UHGV virus genome: UHGV-0138835
DNA length: 48,857 nt
DNA from: a virus
Strand: one strand, 5' to 3'
Every line of letters begins with the position of its first letter. Within the stretch, counting starts at the first letter, position 1. Below are positions 1 to 6,438 of this stretch, piece by piece. Both the position numbers and the translations under genes were made by a program. Under the pieces are notes generated by a model that had not been told where the DNA came from, ran no database searches, and saw nothing but the letters and a program-made list of their open reading frames with translations.

Positions 1-2375
1 CAGAAGATCTTTATAAAAAAGTTAAGGAAAACGCCGATGATATTGGTCAGCATGAGTCAAGAATTGACTCATTAGAAGTGTACAGCGAAAAAGTTGGCAG
101 CGAACTGGAGCAAGCAAAAGCAAGCCTGCAAAACGCGTCACTTGCTCTTATTAATAACTCACTTGCACAGACAAACACGCGCGTAACTCTTACCGCTCAG
201 TACAAGAAAGGCAGGACAGAGACTAAAGCGGAAATTGACCGTATTGACAACGTTATCGCTGAAGAGAAAAAAGCGACAGCGGAATCACTGGAAACCATCA
301 CAGCAGAAATGAATACGATGGATTCCAACCTTAAAGGTCAAATCTCTAACGTGCAACGAGCAGTAGCTGACGAGGCCAGCGCCCGCGCTGAAGCTATTAA
401 CGGTGTAAACGCCTCAATAAGCAATCTCGACAAGAAAACTGACGCCAGCGTTAACCGCCTTGATCAAGCTATCGCCGACGAAACAAGCGCACGCACCCAG
501 GCAGTCAGCGACGTTAACGCAAATATCTCAGCGCTTGATAAGAAAACTGACGCCAGCGTTAAACGTTTGGATCAAGCGATTGCAGACGAAACAAGCGCCC
601 GCAGCGAAGCCATCAGTGGAGTAAATGCCTCGGTATCAGCGCTCGACAAGAAAACTGACTCAAGTATAAGCCGTCTTGATAAGGCAATAGCAGACGAGAC
701 GAGCGCGAGAACTGAAGCCATTAACGGTGTGAAGGCGTCAATTTCCACACTTGACGGCAAGGTTACAAGTAACGTTAATCGTCTTGATAAGGCGATTGCA
801 GACGAAACGAAGGCACGCACTGACGCTATCAGTAGCGTGAATGCAAGCATTAGCACACTTGAAAGCAACACCGAATCAGAAGTAAGCAGACTTGATCAGG
901 CAATCGCTGACGAGGCCAGCGCTCGCGCACAAGCCATCAGCGGTGTGAATGCTTCGATAGAAAGTCTTGAAAGTAAAACCGATGCGAGCGTTTCCCGTCT
1001 TGATAAAGCAATAGCAGATGAAACGCAGGCAAGAAGCGACGCAATAACAGAGGTTAAAGCTGATTTAACAACACTAGAAAGCAACACAAACGCCAGCGTT
1101 AAGCGTCTTGATCAGGCAATTGCAGACGAAACAAGCGCCAGAGGACAAGCTATCAGCGAAGTTAGCGCAAGTGTCAGCACGCTTGATAATAAAGTGACAA
1201 GCAACGTCACCAGGATGGACAAAGCCATCGCCGACGAAACAAAAGCACGCACAGACGCAATAAGCGGCCTCAGTGCATCGCTTACCAGTACGATTAATTC
1301 AAAAGTATCTGAAGTGTCGACAGCGCTCTCTACGCATGAGGAATCAAGCGCGGAAAAATTTAGCCAGATCTCAGCGTCTTTCGAATCAGTAAACTCAAGT
1401 ATTACAGAATGGTCGCAGGCAATGGCAACGGCTGACGAGGCATTATCAAGCAAAATTGATCAGTTGACAGTAACAGTTAACGGGAACAAAACGGCGATAG
1501 AGACGACATCGAAAGCATTAACCGACTTCAAAGGTAATGTTGATGCGTCGTACTCTATCAAGCTGGCGACCGACAACAACGGAATGAAATACGCAACAGG
1601 TATGTCGCTTGGCCTCACTGGTGACGGCACTAACTTTCAGTCGCAGTGTATTTTCCTTGTTGACCGTTTCGTGTTAATGACCGCAGCAAACGGCACATAT
1701 ACAACGCCTTTCTATGTCACCAATGGCGCAATGTATGTAAGAGAAGCGTTTATTAAGGACGGAACTATCAACTCCGCCAAAATAGCTGATCAAATACAGT
1801 CAGTTAATTACAGCTGGGAAAACGGTACAGGATGGGCGATAAATAAAGCCGGTGACGCAGTATTTAACCAGGTAACCGTAAGGGGTACGGTATACGCTTA
1901 TGCTGGTGTGTTTAACGGTACTGTTTACGCAACTGGCGGTAAATTTACTGGAGCAGTTGAAGCTACAAGTTTTGTTGGTGACGTAGCAAGTATGTCAGTG
2001 ATAAACGAGGATGTATTTCCGTCAATGAGGGGAAATGGCAGCAGGCGCGTTTCGAAAACTTATCTTGATTCAAGTTCATCAAGTTTATCAAAAACAGTTT
2101 ACGTTATGATTCCGTATGATTTGTCATACTATACATATAGTGAATCTTCTCGCATCAATGTAACTATAAATATAAGCGGACACCAAAAAACAATTAATAT
2201 AGAAAGGCCAGCATCAACCCCAGCAATGTCAACTGTCGCGGTGCACTGTGTATCTGGCCTCACATACCCAACAATTACAGTAGAGGTGACGGAAAACTTT
2301 ACCAATACATCTAATGCAGCAATAAGAAAACCAGGTTTAATACTTATAACAAGAAGTTCAGGAACATGGATATAA
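1..2375 (+). CDS. tail fiber / host-specificity protein, 5'-partial (reading frame open to window start, codon phase from nt 3)
   Basis: No in-frame stop upstream of the track ORF start at 78; nine tandem 36-aa repeats of consensus RLDxAIADETSARxxAIxxVNASISxLDxKTxxSVx, then a Gly/Thr/Tyr-rich beta-type C-terminus typical of fibers; position just before a second fiber and attP/int. Confidence 0.7.
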   Translation, partial: EDLYKKVKENADDIGQHESRIDSLEVYSEKVGSELEQAKASLQNASLALINNSLAQTNTRVTLTAQYKKGRTETKAEIDRIDNVIAEEKKATAESLETITAEMNTMDSNLKGQISNVQRAVADEASARAEAINGVNASISNLDKKTDASVNRLDQAIADETSARTQAVSDVNANISALDKKTDASVKRLDQAIADETSARSEAISGVNASVSALDKKTDSSISRLDKAIADETSARTEAINGVKASISTLDGKVTSNVNRLDKAIADETKARTDAISSVNASISTLESNTESEVSRLDQAIADEASARAQAISGVNASIESLESKTDASVSRLDKAIADETQARSDAITEVKADLTTLESNTNASVKRLDQAIADETSARGQAISEVSASVSTLDNKVTSNVTRMDKAIADETKARTDAISGLSASLTSTINSKVSEVSTALSTHEESSAEKFSQISASFESVNSSITEWSQAMATADEALSSKIDQLTVTVNGNKTAIETTSKALTDFKGNVDASYSIKLATDNNGMKYATGMSLGLTGDGTNFQSQCIFLVDRFVLMTAANGTYTTPFYVTNGAMYVREAFIKDGTINSAKIADQIQSVNYSWENGTGWAINKAGDAVFNQVTVRGTVYAYAGVFNGTVYATGGKFTGAVEATSFVGDVASMSVINEDVFPSMRGNGSRRVSKTYLDSSSSSLSKTVYVMIPYDLSYYTYSESSRINVTINISGHQKTINIERPASTPAMSTVAVHCVSGLTYPTITVEVTENFTNTSNAAIRKPGLILITRSSGTWI
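348..1319 (+). repeat. 9 x 108-bp tandem coding repeats (36-aa units) inside the tail-fiber gene
   Basis: Repeat units read directly from the translated ORF (aa 91-414); explains the spurious minus-strand ORFs 572-871, 896-1087, 1112-1453. Confidence 0.85.
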
Positions 2376-2380
2376 AAAAT

Positions 2381-2408
2381 AACCCCGCTTCGCGCGGGGT
2401 TTTCTTTT
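2381..2408. terminator. bidirectional rho-independent terminator (stem CCCCGC/GCGGGG flanked by A-run and T-run)
   Basis: Hairpin ccccgc-ttcgc-gcgggg followed by ttttctttt on + and preceded by aaaaaataa; sits between convergent genes. Confidence 0.6.
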
Positions 2409-2832: not shown

Positions 2833-5800
2833 ATGATTTACACAACTGGAACAATTGCCATCAACGGCAATGCTGTTACAGGCACGGGAACAAACTTTTC
2901 CGCGCCGCTTTCTCTCATTCGTGTAGGCTGCACGCTCATTGCAATCGGCAATCCGGTGCAGATCTTTACCATCACAGAAATTAAAAGCGGTACTGAACTG
3001 TCAGTGACGCCAGCAGCTAACCCTGCAATCCCTGCGGGAACAAAATTTAGTATTCTGCTATCTGACTCAATCTCAGTTGATGGTCTTGCTCAGGACGTAG
3101 CTGAAACCCTGCGTTACTACCAGGGCAAGGAAACAGAGATCGCCGCCGCTGTCGAGTGGTGGGAAGATTTTGGCGGAGAAGGTCAGTTGGATCAGCTTCT
3201 TACCAACATTCGCGCAGAAACAGCCAAATCAACCGCCAATGCTCAAAAAACAGAAACTGACAAAAACGCAGCAGAAGCGTCAAAAACAGCGGCTGCAAAA
3301 TCCGCCACGGCAGCGAAAACATCAGAAACCAACGCTAAGGCAAGTGAGACAGCAGCAAAGACAAGCGAAACCAACGCCAAAACGTCAGAGAACAGGGCGC
3401 AAGAATATCTAAATCAAATGGGAAGGCTTACCAGTCCAATGGTTCAATGTGATTGGCCCGTTACAACTGGTACGACTGACGCTTACGTTAAGATAGCTAA
3501 AGTTACCAACCCAGGTAGCAGCTCCTGCCACATGACACTAATGATCACTAATGCCGGTAACTACGGGACAAGTTACGGAAACATTGATTTTGTCGAGATC
3601 TCCGCTCGCGGTTTTCCCGATGAACTGAACGCCGATAATGTATCTAAATACTTGAGTATCCGCCGCTTAGGTTCACCAAATCTGGCAACTGATAATCAGA
3701 TGCGTTATGGGCTTGTTAAGGGCGATAACTTTTTTGAGGTCTGGTGTCGTCAGCGAGCATTTACCGGAAGCGCAAAGGTCGCTGTACTGGCGCAGACTAA
3801 TCAAAACACGGAATTATACATTCCCGAAGGATTTGTTAAACAAGACAATGCACCATCAGGATTTATTGAAAGCCCGGCAGCAAGGATTTACGACCAGGTA
3901 AACAAACCCAGCAAGGCGGATTTGGGCCTTTCTAACGCTATGCTTATAGGCGCTTTTGGTCTTGGCGGTACTGGAATAGGGTTGACTGGTTACATGACTG
4001 ATCAGGAACTACTACAAGAGCTAAGGGCTAAAGGTGGGTGTTTCTGGAGATCAGGAAAACCAACAGGTAGCACGGCGACCATTTATAGCCACGGTTCTGG
4101 TATATTCTCGCGGTGCGCCGATACGTGGTCAGCGATCAATATCGACTACTCAACCGCGAAGGTTAAGGTCTATGCCGGTAACGACAATGGACTTAACAAT
4201 AACACTTTTGCCGTTAATGAGCTATACGGAACTAAAAACAAGCCGTCGAAATCAGATGTTGGACTTGGCAACGTAACGAACGATGCGCAGGTGAAAAAAA
4301 TCGGCGATGTTATGTCTGGTGACCTGGCGATCAAAAAAGGGACACCGTCATTCTTTCTGCGGTCAGACAGTGGAACCGCCCATGTATGGTTCCAAAATGC
4401 GGATCAGACGGAACGCGGCGTTATTTTTGCGCCTACAAATTCTGAGACGCTTGGTGAAGTTCACATCAGGGCTAAAAACGCAAAAGGTGAAACAAACGGT
4501 GATCTTATTGTTCGCCACGACGGGGTGGTTGAGGTTCAGAATCTCACAGCGGCTAAAAAAGCCAAAAGCGTAACCGCAGAATTTGCAAACACAAGCACTA
4601 GCTCCGATGATACCACGGTAAATATCAAAGGATCACAGCATACGCCTTTGGTTTTAACGCGCAACAACACAATTAAAAACTTATCCATTGGGTTTAAGGT
4701 TGATGATGTTGATCAAAAATACCTGGGTATAGCTGGCGACGGTGATTTGTATTTTGGTAGTTATTCTGACCACACAAAAAACAGCAAAGTGATCACACAA
4801 GCAATACTCGATAGCGGGGTAACGGTAGGCGGTAAAACAACCTTTTCTGACCTTGCCACATTCAGTGCTGGTATATATGGGGCCATAGAACCGGAAATAA
4901 TTAACAGCAAGACTGTAGATCTTAACAACCTTGTCATTAAGTCCTCTGATAAAGGTTCAGTTAAGTATTATCAATGCACATCTTCCGGGGCTGGTAACTC
5001 CATTACCAATAAGCCTGACGGCGTAGGCGGTAACTTTTTGCTACGTGTAGAATCTATTCGTAAGGTTACGGATTCAGATTATACAAACTTGCAAACCCTG
5101 GTTGGCACAGACACGAAACAAATATACGTTCGCTATTGTGAAAATGGCAATTGGTCCGCATGGAGTCAGGTTGTTGTTTCAGGAAGGAATCAGGATGTAA
5201 ACGTAAGGTCGTTAACCACTGGTACCCCTGTAAAATCTGGTGGCGGGCAAATTGATGTACTTGGGAGTACGTCAGATTATAGCGCGATGAATTGTACTGT
5301 GCGTGGTGTTGATAGCACTGGAACCAATTCGGCGTGGTCGGTAGGTACATCAGAAAGCACAGGAAAAATGTTGTACCTGAAAAACCACAGAAGCAGCGCT
5401 CAAGTGCTGTTAAATGGCGATGACGGCGCGGTGCAACTACTAAGCGGTACCGTCAACAGTGCTACAGCACAGGCGCTAACCATCAACAAAGATGAGGTTA
5501 ACTCAACTGCCGATTTAGTAATTAGAAAACAAACAGGGACTGGCAGTCGTTTTGCTTTACAGAACGCAGGTAATGCAGAACTACCGTTTTCTGTCAGTGT
5601 GTGGGGTTCCAGTACTCGACAAAACGTTTTTGAGGTTGCAACGTCTGCTGCGTATCTGTTTTATGCGCAAAGAACGCCAGCAGGCCAGTTGTTTGATGTA
5701 AATGGCGCTATTAATTGCACAACGCTGAATCAGTCATCAGACCGCGACCTTAAAGACGATATTCTCGTTATCAGCGACGCGACGAAAGCAATCCGTAAAA

Positions 5801-6150
5801 TGAACGGATACACCTACACGCTCAGGGAAAACGGGATGCCTTATGCTGGCGTTATTGCACAGGAAGTAATGGAGGCGATACCAGAAGCTGTGGGATCGTT
5901 TACTCATTACAGTGAAGAGTTGCAGGGACCAACGGTTGACGGCAACGAGCTACGCGAAGAAACGCGTTATCTCAATGTTGACTACGCCGCAGTAACTGGC
6001 TTACTTGTCCAGGTTGCACGCGAAACGGATAACCGCGTCACCGAACTGGAAGAGGAAAATGCCAGCTTACGCGCTAACATTGCTGTAATGGATGAGCGTA
6101 TCGCAAAACTTGAAGCGCTTGTCAGTAAGTTGACCGGAAGCGAAGAATAA
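2833..6150 (+). CDS. tail fiber protein with C-terminal intramolecular chaperone (peptidase S74-like) auto-processing domain
   Basis: 1105 aa; the C-terminal ~130 aa (DLKDDILVISDATKAIRKMNGYTYTL...YLNVDYAAVTGLLVQV...EEENASLRANIAVMDERIAKLEALV) matches the recalled endosialidase/T5 L-shaped-fiber chaperone domain; SD GGAG 8 nt upstream. Confidence 0.8.
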   Translation: MIYTTGTIAINGNAVTGTGTNFSAPLSLIRVGCTLIAIGNPVQIFTITEIKSGTELSVTPAANPAIPAGTKFSILLSDSISVDGLAQDVAETLRYYQGKETEIAAAVEWWEDFGGEGQLDQLLTNIRAETAKSTANAQKTETDKNAAEASKTAAAKSATAAKTSETNAKASETAAKTSETNAKTSENRAQEYLNQMGRLTSPMVQCDWPVTTGTTDAYVKIAKVTNPGSSSCHMTLMITNAGNYGTSYGNIDFVEISARGFPDELNADNVSKYLSIRRLGSPNLATDNQMRYGLVKGDNFFEVWCRQRAFTGSAKVAVLAQTNQNTELYIPEGFVKQDNAPSGFIESPAARIYDQVNKPSKADLGLSNAMLIGAFGLGGTGIGLTGYMTDQELLQELRAKGGCFWRSGKPTGSTATIYSHGSGIFSRCADTWSAINIDYSTAKVKVYAGNDNGLNNNTFAVNELYGTKNKPSKSDVGLGNVTNDAQVKKIGDVMSGDLAIKKGTPSFFLRSDSGTAHVWFQNADQTERGVIFAPTNSETLGEVHIRAKNAKGETNGDLIVRHDGVVEVQNLTAAKKAKSVTAEFANTSTSSDDTTVNIKGSQHTPLVLTRNNTIKNLSIGFKVDDVDQKYLGIAGDGDLYFGSYSDHTKNSKVITQAILDSGVTVGGKTTFSDLATFSAGIYGAIEPEIINSKTVDLNNLVIKSSDKGSVKYYQCTSSGAGNSITNKPDGVGGNFLLRVESIRKVTDSDYTNLQTLVGTDTKQIYVRYCENGNWSAWSQVVVSGRNQDVNVRSLTTGTPVKSGGGQIDVLGSTSDYSAMNCTVRGVDSTGTNSAWSVGTSESTGKMLYLKNHRSSAQVLLNGDDGAVQLLSGTVNSATAQALTINKDEVNSTADLVIRKQTGTGSRFALQNAGNAELPFSVSVWGSSTRQNVFEVATSAAYLFYAQRTPAGQLFDVNGAINCTTLNQSSDRDLKDDILVISDATKAIRKMNGYTYTLRENGMPYAGVIAQEVMEAIPEAVGSFTHYSEELQGPTVDGNELREETRYLNVDYAAVTGLLVQVARETDNRVTELEEENASLRANIAVMDERIAKLEALVSKLTGSEE

Positions 6151-6179
6151 TGGGTGATGTGCGAAGAACATCGCCGCGC

Positions 6180-6208
6180 GAAACGAGGCTAACGCCTCGT
6201 TTCTTTTT
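6180..6208 (+). terminator. rho-independent terminator after tail-fiber gene
   Basis: gaaacgaggc-taac-gcctcgtttc hairpin followed by TTTTT. Confidence 0.65.
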
Positions 6209-6229
6209 GTGTACCAAATAGTGACCAAA
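6208..6229 (+). repeat. 22-bp perfect direct repeat, copy 1 (tgtgtaccaaatagtgaccaaa); candidate integrase arm-type site / attP-region repeat
   Basis: Exact 22-mer recurs at 6439-6460, flanking a ~210-bp AT-rich tract just upstream of int. Confidence 0.5.
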
Positions 6230-6438
6230 ATGATAAATCAAAAACAAAAACATAACATAACACATTGAATACAAATGAATTTTTCATTAAGTTATCCATT
6301 CAAAAGATAAGTAGGTAGCGCCATTTCTATCATTTCATATCGTGTCACATCGTCACCGTTTCACGTTGATTTCAAAAGAAATATTTATTCTATCGTGTCA
6401 TATCGCTCCCCATCGTGTTACTATCCATGCGTAAAATG

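Follow-up and report, generated by a model that had tools for sequence, protein, structure and literature searches.

Old, diverged 36-residue repeats of variable number in the predicted helical shaft of protein J, the central tail fiber of an mEp021-group coliphage

The stretch of 48,857 nucleotides analyzed here, from virus genome UHGV-0138835 (hereafter the window), begins within a long + strand open reading frame (ORF) that carries nine tandem units of 108 nt between positions 348 and 1319. The locus raises the question of what kind of tail protein contains such units, how they came to be there, whether their number changes, and whether that number matters for the choice of host. An earlier note on this DNA had described the repeats as near-perfect, had placed them in the "first tail-fiber gene", and had proposed that the length of a modular shaft could vary by unequal recombination and so alter host range. 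We consider it highly probable that the array is the helical shaft of a J protein, built of old 36-residue paralogs, and that the number of units has been altered by recombination between them.

The gene and its parts, in the order in which they occur, are as follows.

3..2375, + strand: 3' part of the gene for a host-specificity or central tail fiber protein J, 790 codons and stop, frame open from base 3 (identified with Pfam, megablast and PHROG)
87..239, + strand: helical "pre-leader" element, amino acids (aa) 29-79, which contains QAKASLQNASLALINNSLAQTNTRVTLTAQYKKG and of which a second copy is the spacer of most relatives
240..347, + strand: degenerate "leader" unit RIDNVIAEEKKATAESLETITAEMNTMDSNLKGQIS, a weak tenth copy (8.8 bits with a hidden Markov model [HMM] of the unit)
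348, 456, 564, 672, 780, 888, 996, 1104 and 1212, + strand: starts of the nine units, types A to I, 36 aa each
1320..1445, + strand: non-repeat continuation of the helix, aa 440-481, helical in an AlphaFold2 (AF2) model and aligned with the helical shafts of 25vf_A (F2-pyocin) and 9l9p_S (T1 gp33)
1494..1907, + strand: Phage_Tail_Tip domain (PF09327), the counterpart of the beta-prism section of the central straight fiber (Pfam; sequence hits in the PDB on lambda J 8iyk, 8xcj and 8jvm; Foldseek matches to gpJ713)
1962..2372, + strand: C-terminal beta-sandwich, aa 654-790, the presumed receptor-binding domain (RBD; AF2 predicted local distance difference test [pLDDT] 84-97; Foldseek; RBD cluster 3, described below)

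These assignments identify the repeat-bearing ORF as a J-type central tail fiber or tip attachment protein of the lambda gpJ family. The window start truncates the gene, leaving its 5' ~2.7 kb and the N-terminal ~900 aa of the product outside, and the side fiber proper is the next gene, at 2833-6150, so the label "first tail-fiber gene" does not hold. The Phage_Tail_Tip family (formerly DUF1983) matched aa 498-635 of the 790-aa fragment with E 2.1e-38 and 131.7 bits, against a cutoff of 22; megablast of the fragment returned the "host specificity protein J" of phages mEp010, 013, 021, 044, 515 and 554; and the PHROG assignment was central tail fiber J. Full-length relatives contain, N-terminal to this fragment, the hub and fibronectin type III domains PF13550, PF24801, PF24421 and PF24489. 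J stands, in the syntenic genomes of the mEp phages, after tail assembly genes K and I and ahead of the side fiber genes, and the window carries the downstream half of this order. The Foldseek search with the AF2 model of the C-terminal part gave as top matches 9wca_F, 8xcj_F and 8xck_F (gpJ713 of lambda and A8; E 2e-9 to 1e-8), while the PDB sequence search with the J fragment gave 25vf_A (E 5e-29), T1 gp33 (9l9p_S, E 5.5e-27) and the J-like protein gp24 (23gd_D). Lambda J also appeared in the latter search, with a match limited to the tail-tip domain onward.

All nine units are in register with each other and with the frame of the long ORF, exactly over the span that had been reported, and the 36-residue consensus quoted in the earlier note is essentially right; among the window units we obtained RLDqAIADETsARtxAISgVnASistLdxktxssVs. 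What did not stand was the claim of little divergence. Pairwise identity between units averaged 60% for nucleotides (47-70%) and 59% for amino acids (33-75%), and the longest exact in-register match between any two units was 23 nt. The periodicity is nevertheless real and far above chance, as judged from in-register identities of 60.5% at a lag of 108 nt and ~61% at lags of 216 and 324 nt, versus 22-30% at the remaining lags tested; independent repeat finding gave the same 108-nt spacing, with identities of 63-72%. Tandem Repeats Finder at default settings reported just 2.2 copies at 77%, because the units are too diverged for it, and the array was accordingly delimited by register, autocorrelation and the unit HMM.

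The distribution of the differences bears on the age of the units. Identity between units was 70%, 76% and 34% at codon positions 1, 2 and 3, respectively, and the third positions of these paralogous units look saturated. The units are old paralogs that protein-level selection has kept similar. As explanations for them, recent duplication and concerted evolution were both rejected, since orthologous units of the relative L040 are ~95% identical to those of the window and the paralogous units within the window ~60%. A diversity-generating retroelement was considered, with no search made for one; most of the differences from unit to unit are third-position changes, unlike the pattern expected from such an element.

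Genomes of the mEp021 group covered 60-86% of the window at 87-93% (about 90%) identity and in a shared gene order, which places the phage, on nucleotide similarity, among the mEp021 (mEpimmI) group of coliphages. Matches continue through the window across the start/end point of the linear mEp records, so that the window evidently represents about 49 kb of an mEp021-group phage of ~54 kb, beginning in the 3' part of J. At ~6150-6300 the side fiber gene directly joins sequence that matches position 1 (the integrase start) of the mEp044, mEp010 and mEp013 records; this direct join indicates a differently permuted or circularized phage genome, rather than a prophage with host DNA at that place.

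We examined 47 relatives, consisting of six mEp J proteins and 41 IMG/VR loci, first with the unit HMM and then by unit typing. Copy number among relatives had been named in the earlier note as a check on its proposal, invariance counting against it, and it proved far from constant: 43 of the 47 contain 2-12 units, and the unit HMM at the threshold used found none in the other 4, which are more divergent. The ends of the arrays are the more regular part, type A being first in 31 and type I last in 35 of the 43 unit-bearing relatives. Representative arrays are given below, the dash denoting a spacer of ~50 aa.

mEp021 and mEp044: ABDJFGK-LCEHI
mEp554: ABDJFGK-LBEHI
L007: ABCDEFGK-LOI
L036 and L040: ABCDEFGb-PHI
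mEp010: AFGK-LBEHI
window: ABCDEFGHI
L014: ABGQ-FFDI
L013: ABGQ-FDI
L018: ABGQ-RI
mEp515: ABDI
L029: MDI

Most relatives (e.g. L001, L003-L005, L007-L010, L036 and L040) have two repeat blocks flanking the spacer, and the spacers of L007, L040, L036 and the mEp phages proved to be diverged copies of the pre-leader at window aa 29-79; in an internal blastn comparison, window positions 111-284 matched L040 positions 3283-3456 at 83%. From this similarity we interpret the two-block arrays as a higher-order duplication of a module of pre-leader, leader and units, of which the window apparently keeps one. Single-block arrays occur independently in mEp515, L025, L027/28, L029, L030, L032 and L039, and the uninterrupted nine-unit block ABCDEFGHI was seen in the window and in none of the six isolates and 41 IMG/VR relatives. 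The 120 best-matching J proteins of Escherichia coli prophages in a large protein database had 1-5 units, with a mode of 3; that database returned only these shorter J proteins, and the long IMG/VR variants are under-represented there. When peptides from the conserved domain were run against a collection of genome contigs, 67 pattern matches were obtained and 0 were confirmed by tblastn; IMG/VR, GenBank phages and the protein database served as the sources of relatives instead.

How the number of units changes can be read from pairs of close relatives. Compared with L040, its closest relative, the window falls into two pieces, 1-1139 at 94.7% and 1092-1766 at 99.3% identity, between which 354 nt of L040 are skipped. 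The switch occurs at the following site.

1104..1123, + strand: recombination junction CGTCTTGATCAGGCAATTGC, 20 nt, to the left of which the window follows L040 unit "b" and to the right L040 unit "H"

The 20-nt sequence is identical in both L040 units at the switch. Similarly, mEp515 corresponds to mEp021 minus 1002 nt, and the junction lies inside a 167-nt interval over which both mEp021 copies match mEp515. L014 has exactly 108 nt more than L013 (a tandem FF duplication) and L018 has 108 nt less than L013, in J genes that are otherwise 99.6-99.9% identical. Whole-unit steps, together with junctions in stretches shared by units, point to recombination between units, and these comparisons support the view that array length changes by homologous unequal recombination or slippage, some of the events being recent. 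The proposal of length variation by unequal recombination is thereby borne out. We suggest that the conserved 5' ends of the units (RLD[QK]AIADE...) retain enough DNA identity for occasional recombination or slippage, that such events would remove or duplicate whole units in frame, and that the ABCDEFGHI array of the window would be what remained of a two-block array with 11 units, of the ABCDEFGb-spacer-PHI type, after the loss of 354 nt.

The same junction could in principle have been produced during assembly, by a collapsed or chimeric join within an 11-unit, two-block array. A chimera could give flanks that differ in identity to L040 (94.7% vs 99.3%), and the junction does lie in a stretch common to two units. 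Yet the units are ~60% identical, and the 20 nt that they share are shorter than the usual assembly k-mers. The join also preserves the reading frame exactly, a number of relatives have single-block arrays independently of the window, and mosaic identity is normal in phage recombination. We thus regard an assembly artifact as very improbable.

With regard to structure, an AF2 monomer model made with a 34-sequence alignment predicted a single helix from aa 34 through aa 481 (pLDDT 55-78), and a second monomer model, of a shorter construct with a 66-sequence alignment, predicted units G-I to be helical with pLDDT 85-96. The composition of the repeat agrees with this prediction: the 321 aa analyzed contain 0 proline and 0 aromatic residues, and one third are alanine or serine. 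The dominant hydrophobic period is 3.60 residues, and in 116 distinct units from all relatives the moment of Leu, Ile, Val, Met and Phe is 85% aligned at 100 degrees per residue. In these units one hydrophobic stripe is formed by L2, I6, I17, V20, I24, L27 and V35, with spacings of 7+11+11+7 = 36, and E9, T10, R13 and T31 sit on this stripe as well. An amphipathic stripe and a continuous alpha-helix are both what is expected of a helical coiled-coil shaft, and the units are predicted to form a modular and continuous one, much as the earlier proposal of a modular shaft supposed. Each 36-residue unit would make exactly ten helical turns, and the expected structure is an under-wound, roughly straight rod of three helices; the trimeric state is inferred by analogy with the solved shafts of F-pyocin central fibers, in which a trimeric coiled coil occupies the same position (PMC13455828; bioRxiv 10.64898/2026.02.24.707460; PMC12874032). 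By standard helix geometry, a unit would contribute ~5.4 nm and nine units ~49 nm, and the rod would keep the Phage_Tail_Tip beta-prism and the RBD at a distance from the tail-tip cone.

In a PDB sequence search with the repeat region alone, the best match of units A+B (348-590) was the coronavirus spike HR1 (6m39_A), at E 0.34, which is chance level; the query RLDQAIADE and the spike sequence RLDKLEAD have an RLD core in common. Homology to the spike HR1 was not accepted at this chance-level score.

Does the number of units determine which receptor is used? We clustered the last 150 aa of the J proteins into RBD clusters, and observed that copy number varies inside every cluster with at least 2 members: 4-12 units in the cluster of LamB users, 3-12 in that of OmpA users, and 3-11 in the cluster of the window. 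The last of these (cluster 3) comprises the window with L007, L008, L011, L012 and L041, and none of the six receptor-tested isolates. Published receptor assignments (PMC11893012), all made on E. coli K-12, give LamB for mEp010, 013, 044 and 554, in which we count 9, 4, 12 and 12 units, respectively, and OmpA for mEp021 and mEp515, in which we count 12 and 4. On the clusters and these assignments we rejected a link of copy number to the receptor; receptor choice is not determined by copy number, and in that respect the suggested effect on host range is not supported. Reach of the fiber through surface polysaccharide is one candidate for whatever selective value a given length may have.

Several observations weigh against an expandable helical shaft as outlined above. 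The longest exact identity between window units, 23 nt, would make this particular array a poor substrate for recombination, and neighboring units, at only 60% identity, lack the high inter-unit DNA identity that marks a recombination-prone repeat. The AF2 models are of monomers, although the rod would be trimeric, and pLDDT over the full fragment is moderate (55-78); the PDB sequence search with the repeat region alone gave no significant match (the E of 0.34 being the best). Finally, phages with 4-12 units all plate on E. coli K-12 by way of the same receptors (PMC11893012).

A further proposal, which extends the helical-shaft explanation and does not exclude it, is that the shaft is a metastable spring, a trimeric coiled coil that would convert into a triangular beta-prism once the RBD has engaged the cell. 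Each 36-aa unit would then become one beta-hairpin and the fiber would shorten several-fold, so that the tail tip would be drawn to the outer membrane and opened, with copy number setting the stroke length and the stored energy. The precedent is the F7 pyocin, in which a 163-residue coiled coil becomes a beta-prism on cell contact, a change needed for killing; He et al. 2026 (PMC12874032) defined an associated motif, SxSxxMxxLxS, and predicted the switch in 21/24 siphophage central fibers. The C-terminal part of the window protein, from unit G through the non-repeat helix to the prism domain, is homologous to the F2-pyocin central fiber (E 5e-29), although it is the non-repeat helix and the prism domain that account for the match to 25vf_A. 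The units gave no significant match in the PDB search (best E 0.34), the solved F-pyocin shaft included. As the switch would require, the coil adjoins a non-switching prism at the N-terminal side of the latter, the helix ending at aa 481 and beta strands beginning at aa 514 within PF09327.

The units themselves contain the motif in two forms, each with one copy in most of the nine: a forward form, A12-x-[TSA]14-x-x-I17-x-x-V20-x-A22, and a reversed form that spans the unit boundary, [SA]33-x-V35-x-x-L2-x-x-A5-x-A7. We found 27 matches, compared with 8.0 +/- 2.7 in shuffled sequences, and a density of 6.8 per 100 aa in the repeats vs 0.43 in the other window ORFs (16-fold); since the nine units share one ancestor, this enrichment counts as roughly two independent observations. 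The residues at the "S" positions of the motif, A7, A12, A22 and S/A33, are small and near-invariant and lie on the solvent-exposed side of the helix, which is unexpected for an ordinary coiled coil and is predicted by the fold-switch model. E9 and R13 form an invariant i/i+4 pair within the core stripe, and a period of 3.6 residues is equivalent to a continuous "stutter", a feature argued to lower the unwinding barrier in F-pyocin (bioRxiv 10.64898/2026.02.24.707460). Against this, both AF2 monomer runs gave helix only; the second, with its shorter construct and larger alignment, had been made in search of the beta-prism alternative and returned a confident helix instead. The reported switch involves 163 residues, whereas here refolding would have to take in >320 residues of each chain, and lambda and T5 do not use the switch, according to He et al. 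(PMC12874032). On balance we treat the spring as a plausible mechanism toward which we incline less than halfway. The broader suggestion that the units represent the F-pyocin fold-switching coiled coil in a form that can be expanded in tandem, with recombination tuning reach, stroke and stored energy, is a tentative one, and we think it rather doubtful.

Another function that may be imagined for the shaft is mainly that of a docking platform for the side tail fiber encoded at 2833-6150, in which case the number of units or the spacer would set the number or the place of the fibers attached. He et al. (PMC12874032) suggested that short non-coiled stretches in phage shafts may be attachment sites for side fibers, and most relatives have the ~50-aa non-unit spacer, one copy of which is found in the window upstream of the array. 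However, mEp021, with two blocks and 12 units, and mEp515, with one block and 4 units, share their downstream fiber genes, which means that block number does not track the set of side fibers, and no attachment motif was identified. We judge this role for the shaft to be unlikely. The preferred reading is still that of a helical shaft made of old units and altered in length by recombination between them.

The repeats also affect gene prediction on the opposite strand, where three ORFs can be read.

572..871, - strand: antisense ORF of 99 aa, a by-product of the repeat
896..1087, - strand: antisense ORF of 63 aa, a by-product of the repeat
1112..1453, - strand: antisense ORF of 113 aa, a by-product of the repeat

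At 63-113 codons these ORFs are long enough to suggest genes overlapping J. They are, however, segments of one antisense frame in which the only stops within the repeat are at 466, 574, 898 and 1114. Each stop is the TGA that GAT-CAR (Asp-Gln) in an RLDQ-type unit presents on the other strand, and RLDK-type units leave the frame open, so that the limits of the ORFs are set by the alternation of K and Q in J. The predicted products, moreover, are low-complexity mirror images of the repeat. We rejected the ORFs as genes on the pattern of stops, and give their reality almost no credence; they had already been called spurious, correctly in our opinion. For annotation in general, diverged in-frame repeats in J genes give rise to long antisense ORFs, and these should not be annotated as genes. 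Depositors have also annotated Rho-independent terminators on the minus strand within the J repeats of mEp554 (L001 4474-4512), mEp044 (L004 4547-4593) and mEp515 (L006 4974-5012), and these may be false positives that arise from the repeat sequence.

Downstream of J, we observed the following features.

2381..2401, no strand assigned: G+C-rich hairpin AACCCCGCTTCGCGCGGGGTT with T runs on both strands, between J and a convergent lipoprotein gene
2407-2655, - strand: lipoprotein of 82 aa, MKNMFKVVLFAAAVALTGC..., with lipobox LTGC (PHROG 12984 "lipoprotein", E 1e-26), convergent with J
2833-6150, + strand: side tail fiber of 1105 aa with a C-terminal Peptidase_S74 intramolecular chaperone (Pfam, PHROG), the next tail fiber gene after J

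The hairpin is likely to be a bidirectional terminator that serves both J and the lipoprotein gene. The latter occupies the position of the Lpp superinfection-exclusion genes of the mEpimmI phages (PMC11893012). The N-terminal stretch of the side fiber is rich in Ala, Thr and Lys and of low complexity, and parts of the gene are 80-87% identical in nucleotide sequence to side fiber genes of Ayreon, vB_EcoS-640R1, mEp460, PhiR70_1 and Salmonella phage Tennessee. The first four of these are lambdoid phages unrelated to the window phage, and the similarities point to mosaic exchange of fiber modules. On the other side of J, a 567-nt putative HNH endonuclease gene is inserted in mEp021 so that it separates tail assembly gene I from J (L005 1227-1793); mEp515 has an ORF of the same size at the same place (L006 1227-1793) that is annotated as hypothetical, and the other four isolates are without it.

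The manner in which a non-contractile tail tip approaches and passes through the outer membrane is still being worked out. The variants described here form a natural series in which the same RBD is borne on 2-12 modules of equal length, each ~5 nm if helical. Such a series could show whether shaft length affects adsorption through O-antigen or capsule, and could tell a passive spacer from a fold-switching spring; if the fold switch is true, it would also be a ready length series for learning how the mechanism scales. For phage engineering, the unit boundaries are natural in-frame splice points at which fiber length could be adjusted with the RBD left untouched.

Among known systems, the closest are the J proteins of the mEpimmI isolates mEp010, 013, 021, 044, 515 and 554 (PMC11893012), which have the same gene, genome architecture and unit types and are 80-85% identical in nucleotide sequence to the window J fragment over the matched parts (35-66% of the 2.4-kb query). 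They differ from the window in that the latter has a single nine-unit block and an RBD cluster to which none of the six belongs. The report on these phages had already pointed out "repeats of different length (positions 950-1,475)" in the J proteins; it gives no definition of the 36-aa unit, of copy numbers or of junctions. A literature search on tandem repeats in protein J returned nothing relevant. The shaft repeats as such had been noted before in mEp phages.

Lambda gpJ (PDB 8iyk, 8k35, 8xcj and 8xck) shares with the window protein the Phage_Tail_Tip domain, or central straight fiber, and the fold of the C-terminal RBD. In alignments, however, lambda J (1132 aa) has no counterpart of the repeat shaft and matches only from Phage_Tail_Tip onward, and He et al. 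(PMC12874032) report that lambda is without a large fold switch.

The F-type pyocins (F7, PMC12874032; F2/PyoF10, PDB 25vf, PMC13455828; PA0641, bioRxiv 10.64898/2026.02.24.707460) have J-type proteins in which a long trimeric helical shaft directly precedes the beta-prism. The likeness to the window protein includes homology over aa 353-619 (E 5e-29) and presence of the SxSxxMxxLxS motif. The pyocin shaft is ~165-180 residues long and heptad-based, with one stutter and no tandem array, whereas the shaft of the window protein is predicted to have ~450 helical residues, 324 of them in nine 36-aa units, and a 3.6-residue periodicity. A fold switch has been demonstrated for the F7 pyocin; the window shaft is known from sequence and models.

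Finally, the J-type protein gp33 of phage T1 (PDB 9l9p; PMC11945409; E 5.5e-27) has, in a C-terminal part that was not resolved experimentally, related helical repeats with an IA[DT]ET.A motif, which align with units H-I of the window. The T1 units differ from those described here in sequence and length and are fewer, and T1 uses FhuA as its receptor. The protrusion predicted for gp33 with AlphaFold3 is ~37 nm.

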